A DNA stretch of 21,898 nt from Candidatus Methylomirabilota bacterium (GCA_046726415.1 JBKPAK010000244.1:1-21898), one strand, 5' to 3'; positions 6,335 to 21,177 are shown, counted from the stretch's first letter. Numbers and translations: made by a program. The notes: generated by a model from the sequence alone, not told the origin.

Positions 6335-6434
6335 CTAGGCACCCTGTGGGCGATACGATCGATGATACGGCGTCAGATGCCGAGCGCGCGCGGCAGTCTA
6401 GCCCGCTTCAGGGTTGAACGCCAGCGCGTGCTAG

Positions 6435-6467
6435 CATCGCGCAACCCGACGAGGAGGTTGCGCGATG
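6435..6467. promoter_or_regulatory. Perfect 12-bp inverted repeat in a divergent intergenic region
   Basis: CATCGCGCAACC (6435-6446), 9-nt spacer, GGTTGCGCGATG (6456-6467). It overlaps a TGcTAGCAT extended -10-like box and GAGGAGG/ATG. Confidence 0.55.
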
Positions 6468-6584
6468 TCCTCACCATGGCCGCGCGAGAAGCCCGGGATC
6501 CGGAGGCCGAGCGTCAGGGCGTCGAGCGCGGGATGAAGGTCCGGCGCGCGCGAGCATCGATCGCCGGCGAGCCGTGGTTGGCCT

Positions 6585-7835
6585 GTGGCGCGGCACGCTG
6601 ACGTCGTCGTCGTCGGTGGCGGCCCGGCCGGTTCGTTGGCCGCCCTCACCCTGGCCCGGTGCGGGCTCGGCGTCGTCGTGCTCGACAAGAAGCGCTTCCC
6701 CCGCGACAAGCCTTGCGGGGGCGGTATCCGCGCGAACGTCTTCCGACGTTTTCCCGACCTCGCGGCTCCGGTGCGCTCCGCCGTGGGCATCCACGAGGTG
6801 CGCAAGGTCCTGATGGAGTCGCCCGGCGGGGCCGCCGTCCTCGCCGCCGCCGAGGAAGCGTTCTACATCACGCTGCGCCGCACGGAGTTCGACCTCGCGC
6901 TGCTCGACCAGGCGCGCGCGCGCGGCGCCGACGTGATCGAGGGCGCGCGGGTCACCGCGCTCGATCGCGAGGCGGGCGATCTGATCGTGCGCTGCGTTGA
7001 CGGGCGGGCGTTGGGCACGCGCCTGGTGATCGGCAGCGATGGGGTCAACAGTGTGGTGGCCCGCGAGGCCGGCCTGACCCGCGGCTTCTCAGACGACGTC
7101 CTCGCCATTGACACGATGGAGGAGACACCGCTCGCCGAACTCGCGGTGGTCGAGCCCGACACCATGTACGTCGCCTACGGCTACAAGGGGTGGCCCGGCT
7201 ATGGATACGTCTTTCCCAAGGCCGCCCACGTCGATGCCGGCGTGGGCTTTCTGGTGCCGTTCTTCAAGCGGGCGCTGACCGGGAGGCCGTACGAGCACCA
7301 CCGGCGCTTTCTGGAGGAAGCGGTGGGCAAGGGCTGGGTGCGGGGGCGCTCCAACGCCGGAAACTTCAAAGCCTATCGGCTTCCGCTTGGCGGGCCGCTC
7401 GCCCGGACCTACGCCGACGGCGTGCTGATCACCGGCGATGCGGGTGGCTTCGTCAACGCCTACACCGGCGAAGGCATCTACTACGCGATGGTGACGGGCC
7501 AGCTCGCCGGCCAGACCGCCGCGCAGGCGATCGCGGCCGGCGATGTCTCCGCCGCTCGTCTGGCCGCGTACCAAGTGGCATGGCAGCGCGAGATCGGCGA
7601 GGAACTCGCCGACTCCCTGCGCATCCAACGCCGGCTCTTCGCCCATCCTCGCCTGGTCGACCGCGTCATCCGCGCGGCGTCTCGGGACCCTGCGCTATGC
7701 CGGTTGTTGGCGGCGGTGGCCCTCGGCGAGGAGAGCCTGCGCCGCCACAAATTCGAGATGGCCGTGCGCTTCCTCCTCACCCTCCTCCGACGGTCTGTCC
7801 CTCTGACGACGAGGGGTGCGCCATCTGGGCCTTGA
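6585..7835 (+). CDS. Geranylgeranyl reductase family FAD-dependent oxidoreductase
   Basis: DVVVVGGGPAG, RFPRDKPCGGG, RRTEFD, GSDG, GYGYVFPK, GDAGGFVNAYTGEGIYYAM. Confidence 0.92.
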   Translation: MARHADVVVVGGGPAGSLAALTLARCGLGVVVLDKKRFPRDKPCGGGIRANVFRRFPDLAAPVRSAVGIHEVRKVLMESPGGAAVLAAAEEAFYITLRRTEFDLALLDQARARGADVIEGARVTALDREAGDLIVRCVDGRALGTRLVIGSDGVNSVVAREAGLTRGFSDDVLAIDTMEETPLAELAVVEPDTMYVAYGYKGWPGYGYVFPKAAHVDAGVGFLVPFFKRALTGRPYEHHRRFLEEAVGKGWVRGRSNAGNFKAYRLPLGGPLARTYADGVLITGDAGGFVNAYTGEGIYYAMVTGQLAGQTAAQAIAAGDVSAARLAAYQVAWQREIGEELADSLRIQRRLFAHPRLVDRVIRAASRDPALCRLLAAVALGEESLRRHKFEMAVRFLLTLLRRSVPLTTRGAPSGP

Positions 7836-7861
7836 CTCGGCGGTGGCGCCGGGACTAGCGT
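7832..7861 (+). promoter_or_regulatory. Putative sigma70 promoter for the CBS gene
   Basis: TTGACT-N18-TAGCGT; SD GGAGGT before ATG 7903. Confidence 0.4.
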
Positions 7862-7902
7862 GGCTAGACTAGTCCTTGCGACCGCTCCCGGGAGGTGCCG
7901 AC

Positions 7903-8334
7903 ATGAAAATCCGGGACATCCTCAAGGCCAAAGGTAGCCAGGTGTACTCGGTCCCGCCCCACCGCACGATCAAGGAGGCCCTCGCCCTCCTCGTGCAGTT
8001 CCACGTGGGCGCCCTGCTCGTGCTCGAGGATGATGGCCACCCCATAGGCATCATTACTGAGCGCGATGTTCTGCGCGAGTGCCACCAGCGCAGCGGCCAG
8101 TTGGGGCATCGCCTCGTACGCGACGCGATGACCCGCGATCTCATCATCGGCGTCCCCGACGACGACCTCGGCTACACCATGGGGATCATGACGAACAATC
8201 GAATCCGGCACTTGCCCATCGTGGACGGCCACCGGATTGCGGGCCTGATCTCCATCGGCGACGTGGTGAAATCGTGTCTGGAGGAGACCGAGTACGAGAA
8301 CCGCTACCTCAAGGAGTACATCCAGGCGCGCTGA
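7903..8334 (+). CDS. Stand-alone tandem CBS domain protein (143 aa)
   Basis: MKIRDILKAKG, VGALLV, GIITERD, RIRHLPIV, GLISIGDVVK; strong SD GGGAGGT. Confidence 0.95.
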   Translation: MKIRDILKAKGSQVYSVPPHRTIKEALALLVQFHVGALLVLEDDGHPIGIITERDVLRECHQRSGQLGHRLVRDAMTRDLIIGVPDDDLGYTMGIMTNNRIRHLPIVDGHRIAGLISIGDVVKSCLEETEYENRYLKEYIQAR

Positions 8335-8403
8335 CGTCCCGAAGGAGTACATCCGGCGCGCTGACCGCCCCGAAGGAGTACATCCGGCGCGCTGACCGCC
8401 CCG
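8311..8403 (+). repeat. Three tandem 31-bp copies of the CBS gene 3' end
   Basis: 8311-8341 is aaggagtacatccaggcgcgctgacgtcccg. 8342-8372 and 8373-8403 are both aaggagtacatccggcgcgctgaccgccccg. Confidence 0.95.
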
Positions 8404-8440
8404 ATGGACGGCCATCGGCTCCTTGCGCGGCTCGAGGTCC

Positions 8441-9208
8441 TCAGGCCGAAGGATTGGCCGGGGGCCTCGGGCGTCTGGCGCGGCGCCCGAGAAAGGCCTG
8501 CAGGCGGACCTGGGCCTCCGCCGTGTGCAACGCGGTGGCGTATGCCTCCGGCTCCCGCCCGTGGCGCCCGGCGCGGATGTCGGTCACGATGTGCTTGGTG
8601 GAGATCAGCCCCGCGCGTGGCGACCGGGCGATCTCCATCGCCCAGGCGGCGGCTGTCTCCTGGAGGGTTGGAGCGGCGACCACCCGGTTGATGAGCCCCA
8701 GGCGGAGCGCCTCCGGCGCCCGCACGGTGCGCCCCGTGAGGAGTAGGTCGCGCGCCACCCCGGCGCCCACGATATCCAGAAGGCGGGCGATCCCGTAAGC
8801 GGGATTGAAACCGAGCGTCACCTCGGGCAGGCCCATGCGCACGCGGTCGGAGGCGATCCGGAGGTCCTGAGCGAGGGCGAGCATGCAACCGCCGCCCAGG
8901 GCGTATCCGTCCACCGCGGCGACGGTCACTTGTGGGAGCCGGCTGAAGTGTTCCATCAGCGCGGCCTGGCTTGTCGCCAGCGCCCGGGCCTCGTCGCCGG
9001 AGAGCGCCGCCATCTCGGTGATGTCATTGCCCGCGCAGAACGCCCGTCCCCGCCCGGAGACGATCAAAACACGCACGTCCTCGCGGGCGGCGACATCGTC
9101 GAGGATCTGGTCGAGTGCTTCGGTGAGCGGGCGGTTGAGCGCGTTGAGCGCCTGCGGTCGATTGAGGTACAGCCAGGCGACGCCATCGCGCGCTTCGAGG
9201 TCGATCAC
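8441..9208 (-). CDS. Enoyl-CoA hydratase/isomerase (crotonase) family protein
   Basis: LNRPQALNALN, GRAFCAGNDI, AVDGYALGGG, DLRIAS, MGLPEVTLG. Confidence 0.93.
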   Translation of the reverse strand: MIDLEARDGVAWLYLNRPQALNALNRPLTEALDQILDDVAAREDVRVLIVSGRGRAFCAGNDITEMAALSGDEARALATSQAALMEHFSRLPQVTVAAVDGYALGGGCMLALAQDLRIASDRVRMGLPEVTLGFNPAYGIARLLDIVGAGVARDLLLTGRTVRAPEALRLGLINRVVAAPTLQETAAAWAMEIARSPRAGLISTKHIVTDIRAGRHGREPEAYATALHTAEAQVRLQAFLGRRARRPRPPANPSA

Positions 9209-9252
9209 GACGAGGGGAAACCGATCACCATACCCACCGATCGATCACGACG
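9201..9252 (-). repeat. Triplicated junction (20-bp period) encoding two coupled 7-aa mini-ORFs
   Basis: GTGATCG begins at 9248, 9228 and 9208. The outer copies share 12 bp (CGTCGTGATCGA). Mini-ORFs are 9248-9225 MIDRWVW* and 9228-9205 MIGFPSS*. Confidence 0.8.
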
Positions 9253-10195
9253 TTCGACCGCGACCCGCACGATGTCGGACGAGGGCGGCGATCGCGAGCG
9301 CGGTCCCGGCCACGGCCGCGCCGGCGGCCGCCGCGCGCCAGAAGTTCGTTCGAAAGAACGGCATCAGCGTATAGGGCGAGCGCCGTGCGGAGGCGCTGAG
9401 GTGTCCGTCGAGGAGGCCATTGACCAGATCCAGGCTGGCGCCCATGAGGGCCTCGGTGGTGGCCTTGGCGAAATCGACGTCGGCCAGGGCGGGATGGCCC
9501 ACGTAGCCCTGGCCGCCGTCCCGCAGCGGATAGTTCGGTCGGAGCTTGGCGGGCATGGAGTACGTGGCCGCCGGCAGGTGGCGATACTGCTCGTCGACCA
9601 GCTCGGGTCGGAGCATCAGCATCATCGAGGTCTCCCACCAGCCGCCGTGCGCGTCCTCGGCGAAGGCGCGGCGCTCGCCATCGGTCAACGGCCGCCCGAG
9701 GGTGCGCGCGACGTCGTCGAGAAAGCGGCCGTTGCGGAAACCCCAGGCGAGATGACCACTCAGCGAAGCCATCGTGACGCCATAGCGGCGCGACACGATG
9801 GCGGCCGCCTCGTCGAGCGCGGTGAGGTGGGTTGGCCCGGCGTGGCCATTGGCAATGAGGAGATGGCGAAAGCCGGCTCGGGCGAGCGACGCTCCGTAGT
9901 CGACCAGGATATCGCGCACCACGCGTTGCCGGACCGTCACCGTCCCCACGCCCTCGAAGGTGAAGGAGCCAAGGTAGAGGGTGGGGGCGAGCACGGCACT
10001 CCAGCCGGGCCGCTCCGAAACCACCCGACTCGCGATCGACTCTGCGAAGTATCGCGCGGTGAAGGCGTCCACGCCCAAGGGCAGGTGAGGCCCGTGCTGC
10101 TCGAGCGGGCTCGCGGTGAGGACCACCAAGGTGCGCGCGCGGTCCAGCGCGGCGAGCGCGGGCATCGACATCTCTTCGAGGCGATGGACGCTCAG
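9245..10195 (-). CDS. Creatininase/creatinine amidohydrolase family protein with a C-terminal hydrophobic tail
   Basis: Metal-ligand motifs LEQHGPHLPLGVD, ANGHAG, DAHGGWWETS. Probable CTG start at 10195 (GGAGGAG upstream, gives SVHRLEEMS); alternative ATG 10171. Confidence 0.88.
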   Translation of the reverse strand: MSVHRLEEMSMPALAALDRARTLVVLTASPLEQHGPHLPLGVDAFTARYFAESIASRVVSERPGWSAVLAPTLYLGSFTFEGVGTVTVRQRVVRDILVDYGASLARAGFRHLLIANGHAGPTHLTALDEAAAIVSRRYGVTMASLSGHLAWGFRNGRFLDDVARTLGRPLTDGERRAFAEDAHGGWWETSMMLMLRPELVDEQYRHLPAATYSMPAKLRPNYPLRDGGQGYVGHPALADVDFAKATTEALMGASLDLVNGLLDGHLSASARRSPYTLMPFFRTNFWRAAAAGAAVAGTALAIAALVRHRAGRGRTS

Positions 10196-10263
10196 AATCT
10201 CCTCCGATCTTCGCGGCGATGGACGCTCAGACGCTGCTCCTCTCTTCGGCGATCGACGCTCAA
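10172..10263 (-). repeat. Triplicated junction (33/35-bp period) encoding a 23-aa bridging mini-ORF
   Basis: Copies are TTGAGCGTCGATCGCC-GAAGA, CTGAGCGTCCATCGCCGCGAAGA and CTGAGCGTCCATCGCCTCGAAGA, starting at 10263, 10230 and 10195. The ORF is 10263-10192. Confidence 0.85.
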
Positions 10264-11642
10264 AAGGTGCTCCCCTTCGTGGCGGTGAGGTACTCGCCCT
10301 TGGCGCGCTCCAGCTCGGCCATCAGCGCCTCTCGCTCGGCGACCAATTGCTGGGCGGCCGCGCCGTGGTGCAGCGCGAGCACGCCGAGACGGATCTGGTT
10401 CCACAGGCGGCCCGCGCCAACGAGATAGCGAGAGGCCAGGAGGCCGCTCAGCGGCAGGGTCAGGGCGAACAGAGGAGCCCACTGCACCCCCCACACGCGC
10501 GACACCACCCAGATCTCAAGGCCCCAGAATACCGGATAGGCGACGATACTGGCCAGAAACCGCGTGGTCGCGTAGTCCGTCTCCTTGCGGGCGGTGCGTC
10601 GCGCCAGCCAGCGGGGCACGTAGAACGGCAGGGCATTGACGAGGAAGCCGTAGGCGAAGACGGGAAAGCCGAGGATGATCTCCCATCCGGTCGAGATTGG
10701 GCGAGGGAGGCGGGAACGCCTGATGTGCGACCGCACGGCCTCGTCGCGCACACGGTGTTCAGCTAGGAGGGCCCGATAGCCCTGGATGTGTTGCCAAATT
10801 CGCTCCACGCGTTCGGGCTCTCGGGTTCGGAAATAGTTGGCGGCATCGACGATCGAATGGGAGAGACGCAGCATGTCGACCTGCGGTTCCGACAGGCCGC
10901 GCTCCTCGCGCAGCTCACGCACCAGCTCGTCGCGGTAGAGCTGCTCCACCGCCTGGACGAGGGCCGCGGCGTCGATGCGATCGACGTGAACCACCTGCGC
11001 TTCCATGCCCCACTGAATGGCGGTGGTCAACGCGGCCACGGCCTCGGTCGCATCCCGCTGGTAGGCATCGAGGTGCGGATGCACGGCAATGGGCGGGCCG
11101 AAGGAGACGAGCACACGGCCGCGGAATGACTTGCGCGCCTCGAAGGTAAGACCCACGGGCACGAGGGCGAGCACGTGGGGTCGCTGGGCTTCGCAGGCCA
11201 GGGCGATGCGCGCGGCCCCGGTCTTGATGCGCTGCACGCGCTTTTCTGCGTGCGTGGTCCCCTCCGGATAGATGGCCACCACACGGCCGGCGGCGAGCGT
11301 GGCCTGGGTGGCGGCGAAGGCGTCGATGTTGCGGTCCATCTTGTCGGGCTCATCCTGCCTCCGGTACACGGGAATCGCGCCGGCCGCCCGCAGGAACCGG
11401 GCCATCAGCGGATTGCGGAAGAGGGTGGCGGCGGCCATGTAGTGGACCTTGCGCCGCAGGACGGCGGCGATCAGCAGTGAATCGATGAGGTTGTTGGGAT
11501 GGTTGATGCACAGGAGCACCGGCCCAGCCGTGGGCATACGCTCGAGATGACCCACGTCGACGCGCTTAAAGAAGAACCAGAGCCAGAAGCGCGCGATCGC
11601 GCGCAGGACGCGGTAGAAGGGATCCGTCGTCTCCGGCGGCAT
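10260..11642 (-). CDS. Glycerophospholipid (PlsC/LPLAT superfamily) acyltransferase with C-terminal transmembrane segments
   Basis: NHPNNLID (HX4D), GAIPVYR, IYPEGTTH, KTGAARIAL, and hydrophobic C-terminal helices. Confidence 0.92.
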   Translation of the reverse strand: MPPETTDPFYRVLRAIARFWLWFFFKRVDVGHLERMPTAGPVLLCINHPNNLIDSLLIAAVLRRKVHYMAAATLFRNPLMARFLRAAGAIPVYRRQDEPDKMDRNIDAFAATQATLAAGRVVAIYPEGTTHAEKRVQRIKTGAARIALACEAQRPHVLALVPVGLTFEARKSFRGRVLVSFGPPIAVHPHLDAYQRDATEAVAALTTAIQWGMEAQVVHVDRIDAAALVQAVEQLYRDELVRELREERGLSEPQVDMLRLSHSIVDAANYFRTREPERVERIWQHIQGYRALLAEHRVRDEAVRSHIRRSRLPRPISTGWEIILGFPVFAYGFLVNALPFYVPRWLARRTARKETDYATTRFLASIVAYPVFWGLEIWVVSRVWGVQWAPLFALTLPLSGLLASRYLVGAGRLWNQIRLGVLALHHGAAAQQLVAEREALMAELERAKGEYLTATKGSTF

Positions 11643-11876
11643 GGCTGACCTCGAGCCCCTCGTCGGACGCCGCCTCAGGCTGGCTCTCGACGGGCCCGCA
11701 CCGAGTGTACCGTCTCCCGCTCCCCCGTGGGTGCGCGCAGATCCTCCTTGGAGTCACCTCGGCCGATGTCCTCTCCGTCATCCTTCATCTCAGAGGAGAG
11801 TCAATGGCCGGCGTCGCTGGCAGGCACCTCCCTCGATGTGAGGTCCGGGGGGCGTGCGGTGGTGGGACGTCGCGGC

Positions 11877-12443
11877 TCAGGCGCGCGGGTGGGACTCGGA
11901 GCGCGCATGGCGGCGGATCAGCGCGTCGAAGTCGTCGGAGGGGAGGGCGTGGGCCCACTCGACGGCCTCTGCCTCCTCGCCGTACAGTTCTTGAAGCCAC
12001 GCCACGGCCTCGGACTTCGCGCGGAAGAGCCGCCAGAGATGTCCGACCAGGGTCCCGGGCCGCCGAAGGTGAAACGTCGGGTCCGCGGCAGACTGCGGCT
12101 GGTAGCTGTTGCGCTCGCCGAAGCGATCGAGGGTGTTCCAGGCCACCGCGATGGCGTGCCCGGAGAGCACCCGCGCCTTCAGCGACTCCTCACGCGGGAG
12201 CGCATTGACATCGCAGAGCTTGGGGCCGTAGTAGATCGGTACGCTGGAGGCCGGAAGCGATATTTCCGCGCCGATGGGCGAACCGCCGGCGGCGTCGAGC
12301 AGCGCCTTGGAGTCCGCGCCGACCCAGAAGCCGACGCCCTTCGCGTCCGGCCACGCCTCCACTACCGCTCCCTTGAGCACGCGCGCCCGACGCCGCGCGA
12401 TCTCGTCGCCCGAGGCGAGGAGGTAGAGGCGCCTTTCGCTCAC
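11877..12443 (-). CDS. Hypothetical protein (188 aa), last gene of the citrate synthase-aconitase-prpF operon
   Basis: GTG 12443 overlaps the prpF stop (GTGA). Globular composition and GC3-rich codons; no family recognised. Confidence 0.8.
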   Translation of the reverse strand: MSERRLYLLASGDEIARRRARVLKGAVVEAWPDAKGVGFWVGADSKALLDAAGGSPIGAEISLPASSVPIYYGPKLCDVNALPREESLKARVLSGHAIAVAWNTLDRFGERNSYQPQSAADPTFHLRRPGTLVGHLWRLFRAKSEAVAWLQELYGEEAEAVEWAHALPSDDFDALIRRHARSESHPRA

Positions 12444-13537
12444 GGCACCCGGACGAACCCTTCCATGAGCCGGCGGGCCGTGCGGTACACCGTCACGTGC
12501 TCGGCCCACGGCGCGCCGTCGCGCGTCTTCACGGCAGCCGCGACGGGCAGCACGCCGGAGGGATGGCCCAGGCGGAGGTCACCAGTCGCGGACCCCGCGC
12601 ATTCGTGCACGACCGTCCCGTCGATGCGGGCGGCCACGGCCAGGCACATCGCCGCGGTCAGGGCGAACGCTCGATGGCAGTTGCCCATCGAGATGACGCG
12701 GGCCACCACGTCGGCGGCGTCCGCCTCGTACACCTGCCCATCGAGACCGTCAAAGGCAGTAGGCGGCGCCACCACAGCGACCTTCGGGACGGCGGTGCTG
12801 CCGGGTATCCCCATGCGCTCTCCGGCCTCCAGGCGGATGGCCTCGAGCTTCGCGCTCACCGTGCGATTGGCGTCGACGGCTTCCGGTCGCTCGATGCCGC
12901 TGAGCCCGAGGTCCTGCGCGCGCACGAATACCATCGCATTGGTGGCGTCGACCATCGAGGCTTCCACGCCGCCAATCACCTCGCGCGCGGCCCCGCTCGG
13001 CAGGAGCCGCCCCGTGCCGGCCCCGCCCGGATCGAGAAAATCCAGGGCGATCCGCGCGCCGCGCCCGCGGACCCCGGCGAGCTCGAAGTCCCCCTCCACC
13101 GCGGCTTCGCCGTCCTTCACGGGCACGTGGGCGACGATGATCTTTTGCGTGTTCGTGTTGTGGATGCGGACGATCATCTCGTCCCCCGTCGCCTTCACAA
13201 GTCCTTCATCGATGGCGAAGGGGCCGACCGCGGAAGAGCAGTTGCCGCAGTTGCCCCGGTAGTCCACTGCGGGAACACGCACCTCGACCTGGGCAAACGT
13301 GTAGTCGACGTCTGCCTCCGGGTGCGTTGCCGGACCGATGATGCAGGCCTTCGAGAGCGAGGAGATCCCGCCGCCGAGCCCATCGAGCTGGCGCCCGTAG
13401 GGGTCCGGGCTTCCCAGGGCGGTCAGGAGGATGCGGTCGCGAGGGGGCCCCGCGTGGGGCAGATCCTCATCGTGGAAGACCAGGCACCGGCTGGTGCCGC
13501 CCCGCATGAACACCGCGCGAATTCGGCGTTGGCTCAT
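12440..13537 (-). CDS. prpF: PrpF family isomerase (2-methylaconitate cis-trans isomerase / oxalomesaconate tautomerase family)
   Basis: MRGGTSR, GSPDPYGRQLDGLGGG.SSLSK, VDYTFAQV, GNCGNCSSAVGPFA, ISMGNCH, HPSG, YRTARRLMEG. Confidence 0.92.
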   Translation of the reverse strand: MSQRRIRAVFMRGGTSRCLVFHDEDLPHAGPPRDRILLTALGSPDPYGRQLDGLGGGISSLSKACIIGPATHPEADVDYTFAQVEVRVPAVDYRGNCGNCSSAVGPFAIDEGLVKATGDEMIVRIHNTNTQKIIVAHVPVKDGEAAVEGDFELAGVRGRGARIALDFLDPGGAGTGRLLPSGAAREVIGGVEASMVDATNAMVFVRAQDLGLSGIERPEAVDANRTVSAKLEAIRLEAGERMGIPGSTAVPKVAVVAPPTAFDGLDGQVYEADAADVVARVISMGNCHRAFALTAAMCLAVAARIDGTVVHECAGSATGDLRLGHPSGVLPVAAAVKTRDGAPWAEHVTVYRTARRLMEGFVRVP

Positions 13538-13581
13538 GGCGTGTCGCTCTCCTCGTCTTCGCTCCGAGAGGTCGCCGTCAC
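13534..13581 (-). other. MIRU-like intercistronic unit encoding a 15-aa bridging mini-ORF (MTATSRSEDEESDTP)
   Basis: Its GTG overlaps the aconitase TGA and its TGA overlaps the prpF ATG. CGCCRTGA occurs at both ends, with an internal GAGGAG. Confidence 0.65.
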
Positions 13582-15497
13582 GGCGATGCCCCCCGGGTGT
13601 GCGCGAGAAGGCCCCCGGCGAGGAGGATCTCCCGCTCGCGCGGCGTCAACACGCACGAGGCCGTGAAACGAGCGCCGCTCCGATGGTTGGTGACCGCCAT
13701 CCTCGTCCCCGAGGTGAGCGCGGGGCGCAGCCCGTCGATCCGAAGCCGATCGTCGCGCTCGATGCCGTCCCAGGCGGTCGGGTCATCGAACACGAGCGGG
13801 ACGAGACCCCAGTTGATGAGGTTGGCGCGGTGGATCCGTGCGAACGACTTGGCGATGACAGCGCGTACCCCGAGGTGCATGGGGCCGACCGCCGCCGCCT
13901 CCCGAGACGAACCCTGCCCGTAGTGCTCGCCGCCCACGATGATGCCGCGTCCGGCGGCCTTGGCCCGCGCGGCGAACTCCGCGTCCACGTTCCGAAAGCA
14001 GAACTCCGCGATGGCGGGAACGTTCGAGCGGAAAACGAGGACGGCCGAGCCTGAGGGCGAGATGTCGTCTGTGGATACCTTGTCGCCGAGCTTCAGCAGG
14101 ACCGGCGCCTCCAGCATCTCCGCTACCGGCTCGCCGAGCGGCACCGGCTTGATATTGGGCCCGCGCACCACCTCGCCCTCGCCGTCCGGCATAACGAAGC
14201 CGGCCTCCGAACTGGCGAAGCGCGGCGGCAAGGCGATCGACGGGTGAGGACCGAGCGTCCGTGGATCCGTGATGACCCCGGTCAGCGCCGAAGCCGCCGC
14301 CACGACGGACGAGCAGAGATAGACCTCGTCGTCCTTGACGCCGCTCCGTCCCGAGAAATTCCGGTTGAAGGCGCGGAGACTCTTGACTCCGGCGGCGGGG
14401 ACGTGACCGATGCCTGCGCAGGCGCCGCACGTGGACTCAGACACCGTGGCGCCGGCTGCCAGGAGGTCGGTGAGGAGCCCCTCGCGGGCCATGGTCTCGA
14501 GGATTCGATGGCTGCCCGGGAACAGCACGAAGGACACCGAAGAATGGACGCGGCGGCCTCGCAATACTTCGGTCACCGAGGCCATGTCATGCCACGATCC
14601 GTTAGTGCACGAGCCGACCATGACCTGCTCCACCGGCGTTCCCGCGACATCCTCGACGGGCACCACGCGGTCGGGCGACCCCGGGAGCGCCACCAGCGGT
14701 TGAATCGTCCCGAGATCGAGCTCGATCTGGTCATCGTACGTCGCGTCGTCGTCGGGTGCCGCGGGCCGCCAGTCGTCGCCGCGGCCCAGCCGGGTCAGGA
14801 ATGAGCGGGTGACCTCGTCGCTCGGAAAGACGCTGGTGGTCAAGGTCAGCTCGGCGCCCATGTTGGCGATGGTCATGCGCTGCGCCGCGAGCAGGCTCCC
14901 CAGGCCGGGGCCGCCGTACTCGAAGATCTTGCCGCTACCGCCGCGCACGCTGAGCTGCCGAAGCAGTTCCAGGATCACGTCCTTGGCCGTGACCCAAGGC
15001 GACAGCGCCCCGGTCAGCCACACGCGGACCACGGCGGGCATGGTGAAGAAGTACGGCCCACCTCCCAGGGCTACCGCGACGTCGAGACCGCCGGCGCCCA
15101 GCGCCAGCATGCCGGCCGCGCCGCACAGGGGCGTGTGACTGTCGGTGCCGAGCAAGGTCTGGCCGGGAACGGCGAAGCTCTCCATGTGCACCTGGTGGCA
15201 GATTCCGTTGCCGAGCTTGGAGAAGATCGCACCGAACCGCCGCGCCGCCGTCTGCATGTACCGATGGTCGTCCGAGTTACGCGAGTCGACCTGGTAGACG
15301 TTATGGTCGACGTAGGCCACCACGCGCGACGGCGTCACCCGGGTGAGCCCCATGGCCTCGAACTGCAGAAGGGCCATGGTGCCGTTGGTATCGGTGAGGA
15401 GCACCTGGTCGGGCTTGACGCCGACCTCGTCCCCCACCACGGGCTTGCCCGCGACGAGGTTGGACTCGATCAGCTTGCGCGTGAGGCTCCGGCCCAT
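13578..15497 (-). CDS. Aconitate hydratase family [4Fe-4S] hydro-lyase, compact single-chain (Aquifex-type-like) form
   Basis: 639 aa. YVDHN, GNGICHQVH, GTDSHT, GSCTNGS, CGACAG, FNRNF.GR, STDDISP, YGQGSSRE, SFARIH..NL.N.G. Confidence 0.92.
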   Translation of the reverse strand: MGRSLTRKLIESNLVAGKPVVGDEVGVKPDQVLLTDTNGTMALLQFEAMGLTRVTPSRVVAYVDHNVYQVDSRNSDDHRYMQTAARRFGAIFSKLGNGICHQVHMESFAVPGQTLLGTDSHTPLCGAAGMLALGAGGLDVAVALGGGPYFFTMPAVVRVWLTGALSPWVTAKDVILELLRQLSVRGGSGKIFEYGGPGLGSLLAAQRMTIANMGAELTLTTSVFPSDEVTRSFLTRLGRGDDWRPAAPDDDATYDDQIELDLGTIQPLVALPGSPDRVVPVEDVAGTPVEQVMVGSCTNGSWHDMASVTEVLRGRRVHSSVSFVLFPGSHRILETMAREGLLTDLLAAGATVSESTCGACAGIGHVPAAGVKSLRAFNRNFSGRSGVKDDEVYLCSSVVAAASALTGVITDPRTLGPHPSIALPPRFASSEAGFVMPDGEGEVVRGPNIKPVPLGEPVAEMLEAPVLLKLGDKVSTDDISPSGSAVLVFRSNVPAIAEFCFRNVDAEFAARAKAAGRGIIVGGEHYGQGSSREAAAVGPMHLGVRAVIAKSFARIHRANLINWGLVPLVFDDPTAWDGIERDDRLRIDGLRPALTSGTRMAVTNHRSGARFTASCVLTPREREILLAGGLLAHTRGASP

Positions 15498-15500
15498 CGC

Positions 15501-16631
15501 TCAGCGACCCTCGCGCGGCACCCAGGGGCGCGCCTTCGGTCCCACATACTCGGCCCGGGGCCGGATCAGGCGATTGTCGTCGTGCTGCTCGATGATGTTG
15601 GCCGTCCAGCCGGCGATGCGTCCAGCCGCGATGACTGGCGTGAAGAGGTCGACGGGAATTCCGAGCGAGTAGAAGAGGGGGGCGGAGTAGAAGTCCACGT
15701 TGGGGATGAGCCCCTTGGCCTTTCCGATCCGCTCGTGCAGCGCGCAGGCCATCTCGTACCACTTGAACTGGCCGGACTGCCGACAGGCCTCCTCCGCCAT
15801 GCCCTTGAGGATGGCCGCGCGCGGATCGCCTGCACGATACACGCGGTGACCGAAGCCCATCAGACGCCGCTTCGCGGCCAGGGCCCGCTCGGCGAAACTA
15901 TCGACGTTGGCCACCTCGCCGATCTCCATGAGCGTGCGCATCACGGCCTCACCGGCCCCGCCGTGGAGCGGGCCCTTGAGGGCGCCCACGCCGCCGGCCA
16001 CCGCGGAGTGCATGTCTGACTCGGTCGACGCGATGACGCGCGCAGTGGTCGTGGAGGCGTTGAGCTCGTGCTCGGCGTAGAGAGTCAGGCTCGCGTCGAA
16101 AGCCTTCACCGTCACCGCCGGGGGACGCGCGCCCGTCAGCATGTAGAGAAAGTTGGCGGCGTGGCTGAGATCGGGGGCCGGCGACACCGGCGCCTGGCCT
16201 CCGCGGACTCGATGGTGCGCACAGATTGCCGTAGCCATCTGACTCGTCAGCCGAACGGCCTTGCGGAGGTTTGCGGCGTGCGAGTTGTCGGTGGCGTCCG
16301 GGTCATGCATGCCCAGCATAGCCACCGCCGCCTGCAGCACGCGCATGGGATCGGTGTCCCGGGGCATCAGCGCGAAGGCCTGAGGGAGAGCGGACGGGAT
16401 CTCGCGGGCGGCGATCAGCTCCGTGGTGATCCGGTCGAGCTGGGCGGCCCTGGGCAACTCCCCGTGCCAGAGCAGGTAGCAGACCTCCTCGAACGTGGCC
16501 TTGCGGGCGAGATCGTCAATGTTGTAGCCCCCATAGGCCAGACGTGCGTTGGCGCCGTCGAGATCGCAGAGCTTCGTCTCGGCGGCGACCACCCCCTCGA
16601 GCCCGCGGATGAGCTGGGATCCTTCGGCCAT
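15501..16631 (-). CDS. Citrate synthase / 2-methylcitrate synthase (short, PrpC-like)
   Basis: RGLEGV, EHELNAST, GPLHGGA, MGFGHRVY, DPRA, PNVDFY, R.IRP. ATG 16631 with SD GAGAGG; 376 aa. Confidence 0.95.
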   Translation of the reverse strand: MAEGSQLIRGLEGVVAAETKLCDLDGANARLAYGGYNIDDLARKATFEEVCYLLWHGELPRAAQLDRITTELIAAREIPSALPQAFALMPRDTDPMRVLQAAVAMLGMHDPDATDNSHAANLRKAVRLTSQMATAICAHHRVRGGQAPVSPAPDLSHAANFLYMLTGARPPAVTVKAFDASLTLYAEHELNASTTTARVIASTESDMHSAVAGGVGALKGPLHGGAGEAVMRTLMEIGEVANVDSFAERALAAKRRLMGFGHRVYRAGDPRAAILKGMAEEACRQSGQFKWYEMACALHERIGKAKGLIPNVDFYSAPLFYSLGIPVDLFTPVIAAGRIAGWTANIIEQHDDNRLIRPRAEYVGPKARPWVPREGR

Positions 16632-16715
16632 GGCTGGTCCTCTCGGCCTCTTCGACGTCCACTCCATCGTCGAGTCGGGCACTCGGATATGCGGCGTCGT
16701 GCTCACCGCGCTACG

Positions 16716-16744
16716 ACCGTATACCGGCCCCTGCCTCGCTGCAA
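16716..16744 (-). promoter_or_regulatory. Putative sigma70 promoter of the citrate synthase operon
   Basis: TTGCAG-N17-TACGGT on the minus strand. Confidence 0.45.
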
Positions 16745-16963
16745 GTTCGCGCACGATCGCAGACCGGACGCGGCGCCTGCTCAAGGAGGGCCCGGCCTAC
16801 CTCCACGAGGATGGCCGGCCGCCGACTGGTTTGCCGTCAGAGTGCCCGTTATCGTCAGCGTCGTGGCGACCAGCTTCGTCGGACGAGCGCAAGCCACCGG
16901 CAGCCGCTATCCTAAAGACTGGCGTCAGTCGCGACGTTCCGGATATCCGAAGGGAGGGGAGCC

Positions 16964-17452
16964 ATGGACAGACCGCCGAGCGACGAGCAGGCCATCGAGC
17001 GGTACCGCTACATGCTGCGGACGGCTCCGCCCGAGACCATCGAGCAGGCGCACGCGGAGGCCTTTGCCAGGCTCACCGAGCCGCAGCGGCGCATGGTACT
17101 CCAGGAACTCAGAGAGAGCGCCCCGGAGCGCGACCGGGCGACCGCGGCGACCAGTGATCCGCAGTCCCTCGCGCGGATGGCGACGCGGGCCGAGATCCGT
17201 CAGCCCGGTACGCTCGAGCGCCTCTTCGGCGGGGCGACCGGTGGCGGGTTCGGGAGCATGCTCGCGGGGAGCCTGCTCGGCAGCCTCGTCGGTACCGTCC
17301 TGGGGAGCATGGTGGCGCAGCACTTCTTCACTGAGGCGGCCGCCGCCGGCGAGCCGTTGTCCGGTGGCCAATACCGCGATCAGACCGAGGTCGAGGACGT
17401 CGACTCGGAGGACTTCGATCAGGATGGAGACGACATGGACCTCGAGGTGTAG
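16964..17452 (+). CDS. Hypothetical protein with a helical N-terminus, Gly-rich hydrophobic segment and acidic tail
   Basis: SD GGAGGGGAG; RYRYMLRTAPPETIEQAHAEAF; GSLLGSLVGTVLGS; D/E-rich C-terminus. Confidence 0.85.
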   Translation: MDRPPSDEQAIERYRYMLRTAPPETIEQAHAEAFARLTEPQRRMVLQELRESAPERDRATAATSDPQSLARMATRAEIRQPGTLERLFGGATGGGFGSMLAGSLLGSLVGTVLGSMVAQHFFTEAAAAGEPLSGGQYRDQTEVEDVDSEDFDQDGDDMDLEV

Positions 17453-17470
17453 AACGCGCTCCGAGGGTCG

Positions 17471-18274
17471 TTACCGCAGGCTTGCGTTGTTGGTGGTCAG
17501 GGTGAGACCGGCATCGATGACCAGCGTCTGGCCCGTCACCCAGCGCGCCTCGTCGCTGGCCAGATAGACCGCTCCCCAGGCGACGTCCCAGCCCGTACCT
17601 TCGGTGCCGAGTGGCGAGGCGTGCCGCCGCCGCTCCCGCGCCTCCGGTCCCAGGTCTTGCACCATGGGCGTCCACACGGGGCCGGGCGCGATGGCGTTGA
17701 CGCGAATGCCTTTGGGGCCGAGCTGCACGGCGACGCTCCGGACGAAGCCGATGACCCCGGCCTTAGCGGTGGCGTAGGCCGTGCGCCCGTGGCCGCGCAT
17801 GGCCGCGATGGACGACACGCAGAGGATGGATCCGCGGCCGCGCTCGGTCATGACCCGCGCGGCCGCTTGGGTGGCCAGCAGCATGGATTTCAGGTCCACC
17901 TGGATGACGCGGTCCCACTCCTCCTCGGTCGTCTCCAGCAGGTCCTTGCGCGACTCGATGCCGACATTGTTGTGGAGAATGTCGAGGGCGCCCCAGCGTC
18001 GGATGGCCTCCTGCACCATGTCCGCGCAGTCACCCGCCTTCGTCACGTCAGCCGCGAACGGCTCGGCCGTCCCGCCCTCAGCCCGGATCAGCCCGGCCGT
18101 TTCCTCCGCGCGTTCCTTGATCTGATCGATGCAAAGCACCCGGGCGCCTTCGCGGGCGAAGAGCATGGCCGTGGCCTTGCCGTTGCCGAGTCCGGGACCC
18201 CGGGAGCCGGCCCCGGTGATGACGGCGACCTTGTCAGCGAGGCGACCGCCTCCGCTCGGGCCCTCGATGCTCAT
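17471..18274 (-). CDS. Short-chain dehydrogenase/reductase
   Basis: TGAGSRGPGLGNG, HNNVG, VSS, YATAK, RVNAIAPG, TGQTLVIDAG. Confidence 0.93.
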   Translation of the reverse strand: MSIEGPSGGGRLADKVAVITGAGSRGPGLGNGKATAMLFAREGARVLCIDQIKERAEETAGLIRAEGGTAEPFAADVTKAGDCADMVQEAIRRWGALDILHNNVGIESRKDLLETTEEEWDRVIQVDLKSMLLATQAAARVMTERGRGSILCVSSIAAMRGHGRTAYATAKAGVIGFVRSVAVQLGPKGIRVNAIAPGPVWTPMVQDLGPEARERRRHASPLGTEGTGWDVAWGAVYLASDEARWVTGQTLVIDAGLTLTTNNASLR

Positions 18275-18285
18275 CGAGAGATCAT
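18271..18285 (-). other. Four-codon bridging mini-ORF (MISR*) with ATGA overlaps at both ends
   Basis: GG ATG ATC TCT CGA TGA GC: the ATG overlaps the upstream TGA and the TGA overlaps the SDR ATG. Confidence 0.5.
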
Positions 18286-19352
18286 CCCATCAAAAGCGCA
18301 CCGGGTGTTTCGCGGCCCATGAGCTCGATCTGATCCTTCACAATGCCTTCCGCCATCAGACCGGCCACCAGCATGGCGTAGCCGTCCGGCTGGGACGGGT
18401 TTCCCATCTGTCCGAGGTCGGTTCCGAGGACGAAGTGCTGGGCGCCGACGTCCTTGATGTGCCCGGCAGACTCTTTGTAGGTCACCCGACGCCAGTGTCG
18501 CATCCAGGGCAGGTGGGCGTCGGGACCCATCAGCACGCCCATCGCATCGATCTCCAGCTTGGCCCCCATCGCGGCAGCCCTCTTCATCTGCTCGGTCGTC
18601 ATGTTGACGACGTCGAACTCGGCATGGGTGACGACGATACGATCGCATCCGGCATCGCGCGCGGCCTCGATGATCGCCAAGACCTCGGTGGGAGACGCGT
18701 GCCCGGTGCCGAGCACCAGCTCCTGCTGGGCGCAAATCTTCGCGATCTCCCGCAGGGCGGGGAGCGCCTTGCCGTGGGGACCGACGACCTTGACGCCTTC
18801 CGGAGCATCCTTGAAGTGCTTCACGTGGTGGTCGGCGTCGAAGGTTGGCAGCCACACTACGCGGCCGTACCCGCCCTGCATGCGCCACATCCACTGCACG
18901 GCGTCGGGGTTGAGCCCGCCGGCCGCGCCGTTGAGCGTGATGCCACCGAAGGCCTTGACGCCCGGGTTGTGCTTGCGCGCGAGCCATGCGCGATCGGCGG
19001 TGGTGGCCACGTGATTCTTCAGGACGATGGCCTCCATCTTTCGCGCCATGTAGAGTGGGGCGGACTCGTCGTCGTCCACGGATCGCCCGAAGACATCCGG
19101 GGCGCTGTGATTGTGGAAGTCGATGAGTCCCTCGATCGGGCTCTCGGCCGGCGGAGGAGGCGGGAACGCGGGCACCTGCGCGGCGAGCCGGTCGCCGCGC
19201 CGGCCCACCGTCGCGAGACCCGCCACGCCGGCCACGGCGGCCTTGAGAAAGTCGCGCCGGCCCCGCTCGGCAGGGAGGGCAGCCTCGCCGTGACCCCAGG
19301 CGTGTCCACAGCAATTCATGAAGCGCCAGCGGGGCGGTGGCAATGGCCTCAT
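18282..19352 (-). CDS. DUF6282-like amidohydrolase-fold metalloprotein with a twin-arginine signal
   Basis: RRDFLK followed by a hydrophobic stretch; IDFHNHSAPD (HxH), LKNH, VWLPT, GTGH, VTH, GTDLGQ. Start is ATG 19352 or 19319. The 528-aa ORF in the track wrongly includes pseudogene sequence. Confidence 0.8.
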   Translation of the reverse strand: MRPLPPPRWRFMNCCGHAWGHGEAALPAERGRRDFLKAAVAGVAGLATVGRRGDRLAAQVPAFPPPPPAESPIEGLIDFHNHSAPDVFGRSVDDDESAPLYMARKMEAIVLKNHVATTADRAWLARKHNPGVKAFGGITLNGAAGGLNPDAVQWMWRMQGGYGRVVWLPTFDADHHVKHFKDAPEGVKVVGPHGKALPALREIAKICAQQELVLGTGHASPTEVLAIIEAARDAGCDRIVVTHAEFDVVNMTTEQMKRAAAMGAKLEIDAMGVLMGPDAHLPWMRHWRRVTYKESAGHIKDVGAQHFVLGTDLGQMGNPSQPDGYAMLVAGLMAEGIVKDQIELMGRETPGALLMG

Positions 19353-19418
19353 CGACACTCTTCCCTCTGCGAGGGTGCGCAAGGGCGCCTGGGCCCACCC
19401 ATCGGCCGTGCACCATTG

Positions 19419-19971
19419 CTTGAAGGTCGGGTCGATGCTGACATCGACGAGGTACGGCCCGCGGCTAGTCAGACCGCGCCCGATGGCCGAACCGACATCA
19501 CTCGCCTTGTCGACGCGCTCGCCGGGAACGCCCAGGGCACCCGCCATTCCCACGAAATCGATGCGCGGCCGATCGAGATCCATGCCGACGTACGGGTCGT
19601 CGGCGGCGGAGAATCCCTTGAGGGCGTAGGTGCGCTGCTTCAGGATCCGGTACGTTCCGTTGTTGAAGATCACGTAGAGTACGGCCAGCGACTCCCGCCT
19701 TGTAGGCGTCGTCAAGCATGCCCATCGCGTTGTCGAGTCCGGGCGACACGTGGACGTTGACGGAGCCGAGCCCACCGCTGGCCTGCGCGTAGGCGTCGGC
19801 CATCGAGATGGCCACCGCTTCTTGGAGCGCGAGCACGTAGCGGATGCCTGGCTCACGCGCGAGCCCATCCATGAGCGGCAACTCCGTGGTGCCCGGATTG
19901 CCGAACATCACGGAGACGCCTTCCTGCTGCAGGATCCGGAGGAACGCTTGCTTGCCGGCGAGGTATGCCAT
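19419..19971 (-). pseudogene. ThDP-dependent enzyme (benzoylformate decarboxylase-like), internally deleted and frameshifted
   Basis: The N-terminal 93 codons (FGNPGTTELP, LQEAVAISMADAYAQ, PGLDNAMG) join out of frame at about 19694 to the C-terminal IFNNGTYRILKQ...IDFVGMAGALGV...GPYLVDV. The middle domain and GDG motif are missing. Confidence 0.9.
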
Positions 19972-20130: not shown

Positions 20131-21177
20131 GTGTGCCCCCACGACGCGCCATTCCTGCAGGCCGCGCGCGGTCGCGCCACGCCGCATACCCCCGTCTGGC
20201 TCATGCGCCAGGCCGGCCGGTACCTGCCGGAGTACCGCGCCGTCCGGGCCCGGCTCGGATTCCTGGAGTTGTGTCGGAGTCCCGACGCCGCGGCCGACGT
20301 CACGCTTCAACCCGTCGAGCGTCTCGGTGTCGATGCCGCCATTGTCTTTGCCGACATCCTGTTGATCGTCGAGCCTCTCGGGGTCGGGCTCGAGTTCGCG
20401 CGAGGCGAAGGGCCGGTCATACACCAGCCGGCCCGCACGGAGGCGGACGTCGCGCGGCTGAAACCCGTCGACGTGGAGAGCGACGTGGGATACGTGTTCG
20501 AGACGGTGCGCCGCGTGCGGCGCGCGTTGCCCGGGCACGTGCCGCTCATCGGGTTCGCCGGGGCGCCGTTCACCGTGGCCTCGTATCTCGTCGAGGGAGG
20601 ACCGTCGCGCGCCTACCTGCACACCAAGCGGTTGATGCACGAGGAGCCCCAGGCGTGGCATCGGCTCCTCGACATTCTCGTCGACGCCACCGCGCGGTAC
20701 CTGAACGGCCAGTTGGCTGCGGGGGCCCAGGCCGTCCAGATTTTCGACTCATGGGTGGGCGTACTCGCGCCCGAGGATTACCGCGCGTTCGTGCTGCCGC
20801 ACAGCCGCGCCCTCATTCGGGCCCTGACGCCGGGCGCTCCGGTGATCCACTTCGGGACGGGCACGGCGGGACTGCTCCCTCTGATGCGCGAGGCGGGCGG
20901 CGACGTCATCGGGCTGGACTGGCGAGTCGATCTCGACGCAGGCTGGCGCGCCGTGGGCCACGACGTGGCCGTGCAGGGCAACCTCGACCCCGCCGTTCTG
21001 CTGGCTCGGCCGCCGGTGATTCGAGATCGGGTCAAGGAGATTCTCGATCGGGCGGCGGCGCGACCGGGGCACATCTTCAACCTCGGTCACGGCATCCTTC
21101 CCCAGACGCCCGTGGATCACGTGAAGGCGCTCGTCGATATGGTGCACGACATGTCGGACCGGAGAGGTCACCCGTGA
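20131..21177 (+). CDS. hemE: Uroporphyrinogen decarboxylase
   Basis: PVWLMRQAGRYLPEYR, DAAIVFADIL, LIGFAGAPFT, QIFDSW, QGNLDP, IFNLGHGI. Alternative start GTG 20107. Confidence 0.97.
   Translation: MCPHDAPFLQAARGRATPHTPVWLMRQAGRYLPEYRAVRARLGFLELCRSPDAAADVTLQPVERLGVDAAIVFADILLIVEPLGVGLEFARGEGPVIHQPARTEADVARLKPVDVESDVGYVFETVRRVRRALPGHVPLIGFAGAPFTVASYLVEGGPSRAYLHTKRLMHEEPQAWHRLLDILVDATARYLNGQLAAGAQAVQIFDSWVGVLAPEDYRAFVLPHSRALIRALTPGAPVIHFGTGTAGLLPLMREAGGDVIGLDWRVDLDAGWRAVGHDVAVQGNLDPAVLLARPPVIRDRVKEILDRAAARPGHIFNLGHGILPQTPVDHVKALVDMVHDMSDRRGHP

Follow-up and report, generated by a model that had tools for sequence, protein, structure and literature searches.

The stretch of DNA analysed here (the window) is a 21,898-nucleotide (nt) contig of an uncultured soil bacterium of the Candidatus Methylomirabilota (Candidatus Rokubacteria), contig C244 of a 7.6-Mb assembly (G000; GCA_046726415.1) with 352 contigs and a GC content of 67.5%. 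It was studied for four intergenic gaps occupied by mini open reading frames (mini-ORFs) that begin on the TGA stop codon of an upstream gene and run toward the start of the downstream gene. At an NTGA overlap, a ribosome that has just terminated can begin again at the start codon lying on the stop. All genes adjoining the four gaps lie on the minus strand, as judged by ORF reading and Pfam matches. Gap 1 separates a creatininase-family gene (9245..10171; Pfam Creatininase, E 2.2e-42, from residue 1), whose first canonical start is ATG 10171, from an enoyl-CoA hydratase/isomerase gene on its 3' side (8441..9208; ECH_1, E 2.7e-46, from residue 6), and gap 2 lies between the same creatininase gene and an acyltransferase gene on its 5' side (10260..11642; PF01553). 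Gap 3 leads from an aconitase-family gene (13578..15497; Aconitase and Aconitase_C) to a PrpF gene (12440..13537; PrpF, E 7e-111, residues 4-365), and gap 4 from a DUF6282 gene that begins with a TPP_enzyme_C remnant (18282..19673) to a short-chain dehydrogenase (SDR) gene (17471..18274; adh_short_C2, E 1.4e-64).

The initial annotation had placed five mini-ORFs of 7, 7, 23, 15, and 4 residues in the four gaps, and all five were recovered in place on the minus strand. Gap 1 contains two, both reading from GTG to TGA with 7 residues: mini-ORF 1 (9225..9248; MIDRWVW*), whose GTG overlaps the creatininase stop (TGA 9247-9245), and mini-ORF 2 (9205..9228; MIGFPSS*), whose TGA overlaps the GTG start of the hydratase gene at 9208. 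The gap has the form GTGA-16 nt-GTGA-16 nt-GTGA, with GTGA at 9248-9245, 9228-9225, and 9208-9205, 20 nt apart, and the third GTG is the enoyl-CoA hydratase start (MIDLEARDGVAWLYLNRP). Mini-ORF 3 (10192..10263; TTG to TGA, 23 residues) occupies gap 2; its TTG at 10263 overlaps the acyltransferase stop and its TGA lies at 10194-10192. Mini-ORF 4 (13534..13581; GTG to TGA, 15 residues) connects the aconitase stop (13580-13578) with the PrpF start ATG 13537, and mini-ORF 5 (18271..18285; ATG to TGA, 4 residues) runs from the ATGA at 18285 on the DUF6282 stop to the SDR start ATG 18274. Of the ten mini-ORF ends, nine coincide with canonical NTGA overlaps and one with CTGA; four of the five mini-ORFs extend exactly from NTGA to NTGA. 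Apart from a fifth NTGA..NTGA gap on the plus strand described below, the other co-directional gaps in the window lack NTGA at one or both ends and read TAG..ATGG, CTGA..ATGG, and CTGA..ATGC. No Rfam family was found at gathering thresholds in the whole window, gaps included, and a crude scan of 8000-19000 detected no terminator-like or promoter-like site, which is consistent with operon-internal spacers.

Spacing was then tabulated across G000 using our own gene caller (codon log-odds trained on long ORFs with high GC at third codon positions, iterated Shine-Dalgarno (SD) and start-codon weights, and greedy overlap resolution), which called 6562 genes (coding density 82%) and yielded 4503 co-directional neighbour pairs, of which 606 have the -4 overlap. 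For gaps of 1-150 nt, the spacing D was taken as the distance between the base preceding the upstream stop and the initial base of the downstream start codon. When the upstream stop was [AGT]TGA and the downstream start NTGA, D was 0/1/2 mod 3 in 51/70/147 cases. The corresponding numbers were 58/69/83 with CTGA upstream, a stop without a canonical start, 42/44/44 with [AGT]TAG upstream, and 165/115/164 with [AGT]TGA upstream and a start without a following A. The excess at 2 mod 3 that the initial annotation had expected across the co-directional gaps of the genome was thus observed (147 of 268 against 83 of 210 for the CTGA controls). Exact bridging, meaning that a frame begun on the upstream stop meets its first stop codon precisely at the downstream start, occurred at 131/706 [AGT]TGA junctions, compared with 67/723 for CTGA (Fisher p 3.6e-7), 36/462 for [AGT]TAG, and 22/222 for CTAG. 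The baseline in G000 is about 9%, which leaves an excess of about 65 junctions. The chance of 1 in 3 per mini-ORF that had originally been assumed accounts for frame alone and was replaced by the exact-bridging baseline of about 8-10% in the control classes (CTGA, TAG, TAA). When the in-frame class was excluded, the frame was closed at or before the downstream start in 325/494 [AGT]TGA cases versus 198/492 CTGA cases (p 1e-15), and it ran more than 30 nt into the next gene in 108/494 versus 237/492. The relays of G000 comprised 131 one-link junctions, 23 two-link chains, gap 1 among them, and one three-link chain.

The same pipeline was applied to 2.0 Mb of contig C5 of G036, a Rokubacteria genome of the same order but another family, with 72% GC. 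The spacing of [AGT]TGA..NTGA pairs was 0/1/2 mod 3 in 18/11/66 cases, against 32/35/42 in the CTGA control, and exact bridging was found in 64/195 versus 39/361 (p 5.6e-10), a stronger effect than in G000. Relative to the expected 1/3, the 2-mod-3 class was in excess in both genomes (147/268 and 66/95, p ~1e-12). Among the spaced co-directional pairs of the G036 contig, TGA followed C in 361 and A, G, or T in 195, whereas the two classes were nearly equal in G000 (723 and 706). This surplus of C-preceded TGA may reflect avoidance of start-competent stops at junctions that are uncoupled.

These counts bear on the explanation by chance and composition, namely that stops are rare in DNA of 67-72% GC, that about 30% of starts are NTGA, and that the cases in the window were picked after the fact. 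Consistent with it, the control classes still bridge exactly at 8-10% (CTGA 67/723, [AGT]TAG 36/462, CTAG 22/222), and gap 4 (11 nt) and gap 3 are unremarkable taken alone. However, the excess over the controls is two- to three-fold in two genomes, the share at 2 mod 3 departs from 1/3 in both, and the lengths of orthologous junctions vary in steps of 3, as described below; chance and composition are thus a very improbable account.

Orthologous junctions were gathered from 40 relatives and 80 public loci; the relatives are related to one another, and the counts were made without a tree. Because a small set of identical junctions recurs in many genomes, the pooled loci were kept out of the statistics; they include CTGA junctions that resemble former TTGA relays. 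An unpublished genome, G011, contributes one direct overlap at the PrpF junction (L020), one direct overlap at the hydratase junction, and one CTGA overlap at the creatininase junction (L048). At the aconitase-PrpF junction, 62 adjacent loci (our own included) comprised 37 direct overlaps and 25 with spacers. Thirteen of these spacers were of the [AGT]TGA..NTGA type, and 11 of the 13 were 2 mod 3 and exactly bridged, with lengths of 8, 14, 17, 17, 17, 26, 44 (our own), 56, 74, 80, and 749 nt; of the remaining two, one was 1 mod 3 and one 0 mod 3, both with a stop inside the spacer. The 749-nt case (L011/L110) is a gene of 249 codons lying between aconitase and PrpF with 4-nt overlaps at both ends (GTGA..ATGA, 2 mod 3), a full-size version of the same geometry.

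At the acyltransferase-creatininase junction, 26/30 loci showed a direct overlap with a TTG, ATG, or GTG start on the acyltransferase stop, and the creatininase N-terminus at these loci reads MSVHRLEE(M/L)S. Since codon 9 is Leu in many of them, the overlapping codon must be the start. The other four loci contain spacers of 68 nt (33 + 35; G000), 35 nt (G001), 20 nt (G022), and 62 nt (G033), all of which are 2 mod 3 and open, and two more loci in a second set have 26-nt spacers. Of the two genomes of the same genus, G002 retained the direct overlap and G001 shows a clean 35-nt tandem duplication that forms a 12-codon TTGA..TTGA relay. In the window, the conserved N-terminal codons SVHRLEE lie upstream of ATG 10171 and directly behind CTG 10195. 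This CTG stands where the relatives have the ancestral TTG, ATG, or GTG, indicating that mini-ORF 3 ends on a mutated ancestral TTG start. Judged by this alignment, CTG 10195 is the ancestral creatininase start carrying a single T>C substitution, and all eight conserved codons behind it are preserved.

CTG was also seen at the stop-overlap position elsewhere at this junction. At locus L048 the genes overlap directly through CTGA and the first 9 codons offer no alternative start, three relatives (L096, L128, and L140) have CTGA..GTGA spacers of 20 or 26 nt in which the last codon is TTC and not TTT, and in the window CTG occupies such a position at 10195 and 10230. On these alignments, either CTG would serve reinitiation in this lineage or the CTGA relays would have recently lost their start.

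The creatininase and hydratase genes are adjacent in 14/30 loci. A direct GTGA or ATGA overlap was present in 5/14, including both congeners, and these sequences then read ATCGA(C/G)CTCGA. Since both genomes of the same genus show the direct GTGA overlap, 40 nt (2 x 20) were inserted at gap 1 in G000. The adjacency of DUF6282 and SDR is shared only by G001, in which the 11-nt spacing is equal and 4/7 spacer bases differ. A direct NTGA overlap as the ancestral state, as had been anticipated, was therefore indicated by the loci of relatives at three of the four junctions. The control-based counts, the second genome, and the orthologous junctions together show that the observation is real and above chance.

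The orthologues also bear on whether the mini-ORFs encode functional micropeptides, which would fit their open frames, canonical starts, and location within operons. However, the PrpF-junction spacers range from 1 to 25 codons (spacings of 8 to 80 nt), they vary in length by steps of 3, as coding DNA does, and their sequences are unrelated except for the bases beside the downstream start; between congeners, most of the gap 4 spacer also differs. Since neither length nor sequence is kept, a micropeptide function is most unlikely.

The expansion at gap 2 repeats the junction itself. Tandem Repeats Finder (TRF) reported a repeat at 10173..10273 on the minus strand (period 35, about 33-35 nt x 2.9, 82% matches), the unit of which spans the junction, from the 3' end of the acyltransferase gene through the TGA into the opening codons of the creatininase gene; three copies of this stop/start pair are recognised (TTGAGCGTC.., CTGAGCGTCC.., and CTGAGCGTCC.. 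again). One copy of the junction is present in G002, two (35 nt apart) in G001, and three in G000. Gap 1 is a weaker case of duplication than gap 2, with GTGATCG occurring three times at 20-nt spacing and CGTCGTGATCGA twice, 40 nt apart. At gaps 3 and 4, no junction duplication, that is, alike flanks of two NTGA sites, was found. The interval 9634-10400 is covered by contigs from soil metagenomes (4 runs, 4 studies) that carry 0-6 substitutions and are free of indels, and gap 1 was covered in 2 soil runs, also with no indel, so that the repeats are not an artefact of this assembly. No copy-number variation at gaps 1 and 2 was seen in these contigs, which can hide rare variants. Of the sequence words looked for, only 5-9% occurred in the two RNA-labelled runs. 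The process of duplication or insertion at stop/start overlaps that the initial annotation had postulated is accordingly seen at gaps 1 and 2, which are local duplications or insertions of the junction itself.

In G000 as a whole, flanks alike at 12 or more of 20 positions were found for 9/134 spacers at 2 mod 3, 3/67 at 1 mod 3, and 2/48 at 0 mod 3, compared with 0/189 CTGA spacers, and for 0/56 spacers in G036. Tandem duplication as the general origin of the relays was rejected on these numbers (9/134 and 0/56), as it explains gaps 1 and 2 and few others. Junction duplication is demonstrable from the flanks for a minority of spacers, and the origin of the rest is apparently lost.

G000 further shows an unusual hump of tandem repeats, each specific to its locus, whose periods fall within 29-37 nt and are not divisible by 3. 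They comprise 2-8 copies, frequently 90-100% identical, and are concentrated at the ends of genes and between genes. Periods of 2 mod 3 (29, 32, and 35 nt; 52 clusters) outnumber those of 1 mod 3 (31, 34, and 37 nt; 30 clusters). The density of these repeats per Mb was 10.8 in G000, 1.0 in G036, and 0 in samples of Sinorhizobium meliloti pSymB and Bordetella sp. This duplication habit was considered as the driver of the relay excess and rejected: G036 has 1.0 per Mb against 10.8 and yet shows the stronger excess. The relay rule is therefore independent of that mutational habit. In the window itself, a 31-nt x 3.2 tandem repeat (8311-8408, 94% matches) duplicates the last 8 codons and TGA of a plus-strand CBS-domain gene (7903-8334) and sits in the gap to the convergent hydratase gene.

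Another possible source of the spacers is a mobile, dispersed element resembling mycobacterial interspersed repetitive units (MIRUs) that was inserted at the four junctions. The architecture fits MIRUs as described in the portions of PMC12548453 considered here, and G000 does contain a dispersed 65-nt element that forms such chains. However, a dispersed family at the four gaps was rejected after a blastn-short search of the gaps and their flanks against the whole 7.6-Mb assembly, which returned only the query itself and matches of 14-20 nt (E ~0.08 or higher) that were taken as chance. In addition, the repeats in gaps 1 and 2 are copies of the adjoining gene ends, and no gap carries the conserved ends of the 65-nt element. 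Insertion of a mobile element at these junctions is thus highly improbable. The MIRU-like family that had been proposed for the gaps was not borne out, as their sequences have no other copy in the genome and few of its 2-mod-3 spacers (9/134) look like junction duplications.

The dispersed unit found elsewhere in G000 is 63-66 nt long, with conserved ends (CAGGCCACCC ... TACAATGACGCC) and a variable interior, and often lies in tandem exactly between a stop and a start. At C103:7286-7682, a six-link relay chain with spacings of 68, 65, 65, 65, 65, and 65 nt connects an HMGL-like gene (6339-7289) ending in GTGA with an O-methyltransferase gene (7679-8272) starting at ATGA. Single units of the 65-nt type give complete two-link chains at C90:24636-24683 and C143:7694-7741, and further sites are C14:59107-59235 and C281:26365-26541; the arrays on C281, C122, and C238 formed incomplete chains with our own gene calls. 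A five-unit array in G002 (L314), with a different interior and equal ends and period, provides four 65-nt links between two genes, the downstream one being presumably ispF-like. The strict end-to-end pattern was present in 3/41 genomes (6 times in G000, 4 times in G002, and once in G004), and relaxing the pattern raised the count in G000 to 18 copies at 9 loci. With the C103 units as an nhmmer profile, only 9 hits on 2 contigs were obtained, and a looser 9-mer motif hit 127 spacers, mostly noise. The 5' motif of the element is also carried by the PrpF-junction spacers of L124, L126, and L138. The 65-nt element is unrelated to the window gaps; this element, and not the gaps, is a candidate for an undescribed MIRU-like family.

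Taken together, we consider it probable (about 0.68) that junction expansions were kept when they closed the frame opened at the old overlapping start and thereby would have preserved termination-reinitiation. In this model, the ancestral gene pair would have been joined by a 4-nt NTGA overlap, an arrangement permitting translational coupling by termination-reinitiation. Short insertions would then separate the genes, visibly as local tandem duplications at gaps 1 and 2. The start codon on the upstream stop would remain, and terminating ribosomes could restart there. With an insert of 3n+2 nt, the restart frame would end on a TGA overlapping the true start, where the ribosome could restart again in a two-step relay. 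An insert of 3n nt would give an N-terminal extension of the downstream protein, and the pair would still count as an overlap. With 3n+1 nt, the frame would enter the downstream gene in the -1 frame, in which stops are rare at such GC, so that the start would be masked and translation wasted. Purifying selection would remove the 3n+1 class and bridged 3n+2 spacers would accumulate, the peptides themselves being unselected. We infer that ribosomes probably translate the mini-ORFs, to the benefit of downstream gene expression. The initial annotation had already suggested that selection keeps frame-preserving lengths, and the excess of 3n+2 spacers genome-wide and among the independent-looking expansions of relatives is what selection on frame predicts.

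Several observations weigh against this proposal. In the window, mini-ORF 3 ends on CTGA (10195-10192), a non-canonical start, and CTG 10195 is in frame with ATG 10171; the claim that each mini-ORF ends on the next start codon therefore stood for four of the five and fails at gap 2 unless CTG initiates. The further claim that every co-directional gap with NTGA at both ends obeys the frame rule had missed a fifth such gap on the plus strand (7832..7906; TTGA 7832 to ATGA 7903). Its spacing of 71 nt is 2 mod 3, in agreement with the rule, but its mini-ORF meets TAG after 8 codons and leaves the gap unbridged. At the PrpF junction, 12/25 spacers have a CTGA, TAA, or TAG stop or a start without a following A. 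The gene starts came from a simple, non-validated caller, with three junction families checked against Pfam and orthologue alignments, and the CTGA control is leaky in that some CTGA junctions resemble former TTGA relays. Among gaps at 2 mod 3, frames ending exactly on the start and frames closing earlier, within the spacer, stood at 131:96 in the test class and 67:60 in the control; with ratios so similar, the data support "the frame must close" more firmly than "the frame must close exactly on the start". SD motifs (4-mer or better) preceded 51% of relay-fed starts in G000 and 64% in G036, versus 42-50% in other classes, so that these genes could initiate de novo and the relay may add little. 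Finally, outgroup samples limited to a 500-kb contig of Bordetella sp. and 800 kb of S. meliloti pSymB gave spacings of 0/1/2 mod 3 in 5/5/8 and 14/12/15 cases, respectively (pooled, 23/59 at 2 mod 3, a weaker share than the 0.55 of G000; binomial p 0.018), and exact bridging in 19/118 versus 14/136, a non-significant trend in the same direction (p 0.19). These samples are too small to decide whether the rule is specific to Rokubacteria.

The main rival explanation is that the pattern arises from avoidance of interference only. A restart frame that crosses the downstream start would be a liability, and an exact stop on the start would be the cheapest closure in stop-poor, high-GC DNA; no ribosome would be handed over, and the downstream gene would be initiated de novo through its SD motif. 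The enrichment of in-spacer closure as well, 98/183 versus 71/232 in the 1-mod-3 class, agrees with this explanation, as do the alike ratios of exact to in-spacer closure in test and control classes and the equal or higher frequency of SD motifs before relay-fed starts. However, stops inside the spacer were almost never acquired at the PrpF and creatininase junctions, where nearly all expansions are exact, and exact chains of two or three links (24 cases) are left unexplained. It also still needs real reinitiation at the overlapping start, so that most of its steps are common to the relay model. We therefore regard interference avoidance as unlikely to be the whole explanation, and we retain the proposal that expansions were kept for preserving termination-reinitiation.

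A broader proposition, to which we give somewhat less than even odds, is that reinitiation in Rokubacteria is so pervasive that operon spacers bear a coding-like 3n+2 constraint and expansions become relay chains, possibly even with CTG. In the same proposition, the lineage would also have evolved its own mobile 65-nt (3n+2) element with conserved ends, which would insert at stop/start overlaps and multiply there, and whose arrays of 21-codon relay ORFs would be an independent, non-mycobacterial counterpart of MIRUs. If the relay model is true, operon-internal non-coding spacers are under reading-frame selection, and indels there are not neutral. The 3n+2 rule could then be used by gene finders and operon models for start-codon placement, and the excess of bridged junctions would be a sequence-only gauge of the reliance of a lineage on termination-reinitiation, useful in uncultured phyla that are out of reach of ribosome profiling. 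It would further explain why coupled pairs tolerate junction duplications and why elements such as MIRUs contain end-to-end ORFs.

Apart from the genes adjoining the gaps, the minus strand of the window contains an ORF without Pfam assignment (11877-12443) and a citrate synthase gene identified by Pfam (15501-16631). The ORF before gap 4 (18282-19868, minus strand) opens with about 80-100 residues that correspond to the C-terminal end of a thiamine pyrophosphate (TPP)-dependent enzyme and continues in the same frame into DUF6282. Relatives have a stop codon between the two parts (e.g. G007, with one TGA within the match). Most of the TPP enzyme, on its N-terminal side, is missing in the window, and a divergent URO-D gene (20131-21177, plus strand) begins there.

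Among known systems, termination-reinitiation at ATGA/TGATG overlaps (Huber et al. 2019, PMC6728339; Huber et al. 2023, PMC10666635) shares the NTGA overlap with both ends of the mini-ORFs. In the parts of the latter paper considered here, termination-reinitiation lost 40-80% of its efficiency at +14 nt and nearly all of it at about 20-38 nt (PMC10666635). With coupling declining this steeply, genes 20-80 nt apart would require a frame that bridges the spacer. Unlike in those systems, the overlap here is used twice or more in series via a non-conserved spacer ORF, and the same parts of the two papers (PMC6728339, PMC10666635) describe no frame rule for spacers.

The covered portions of PMC12548453 state that short ORFs can "deliver" ribosomes and that MIRU ORFs are coupled at -4 nt. 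As described there, MIRUs resemble the gaps in being short intra-operon inserts with an internal ORF coupled at -4 nt and in having tandem copies. The gaps likewise lie between co-directional operon genes, with an internal ORF overlapping the stop and start of the neighbours, in gap 2 only via CTG. However, by the same partial description MIRUs are a dispersed, apparently mobile family, whereas each gap in the window has a local sequence of its own, with no second copy in the genome, and the phylum is a different one. The 65-nt element is a closer MIRU analogue than the gaps, likened by architecture and not by sequence. Delivery by upstream or other short ORFs and synthetic bicistronic designs, also treated in those portions of PMC12548453, similarly use a short non-functional ORF that ends on the start of the real gene; such ORFs sit on the 5' side and are fed by their own ribosome-binding site, whereas the mini-ORFs here would be fed by termination of the upstream gene. 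Bacterial minisatellites, or variable-number tandem repeats, are likewise local tandem duplications, as are gap 2 (33-35 nt x 3), gap 1 (20 nt x 2), and the repeat at 8311-8408 (31 nt x 3.2). They differ from gaps 1 and 2, which showed no copy-number variation in the soil contigs and for which the frame constraint, not variability, is the point.

Neither a 3n+2 spacer rule nor duplicated stop/start junctions outside MIRUs were found in the literature searched, in which subscription journals were not covered. Within that literature, the 3n+2 rule, its control-based genome-wide demonstration, and the expansion of overlaps in steps of three appear to be unpublished. Coupling at NTGA overlaps and the delivery of ribosomes by short ORFs are already known, and the present finding extends them rather than forming a new category.

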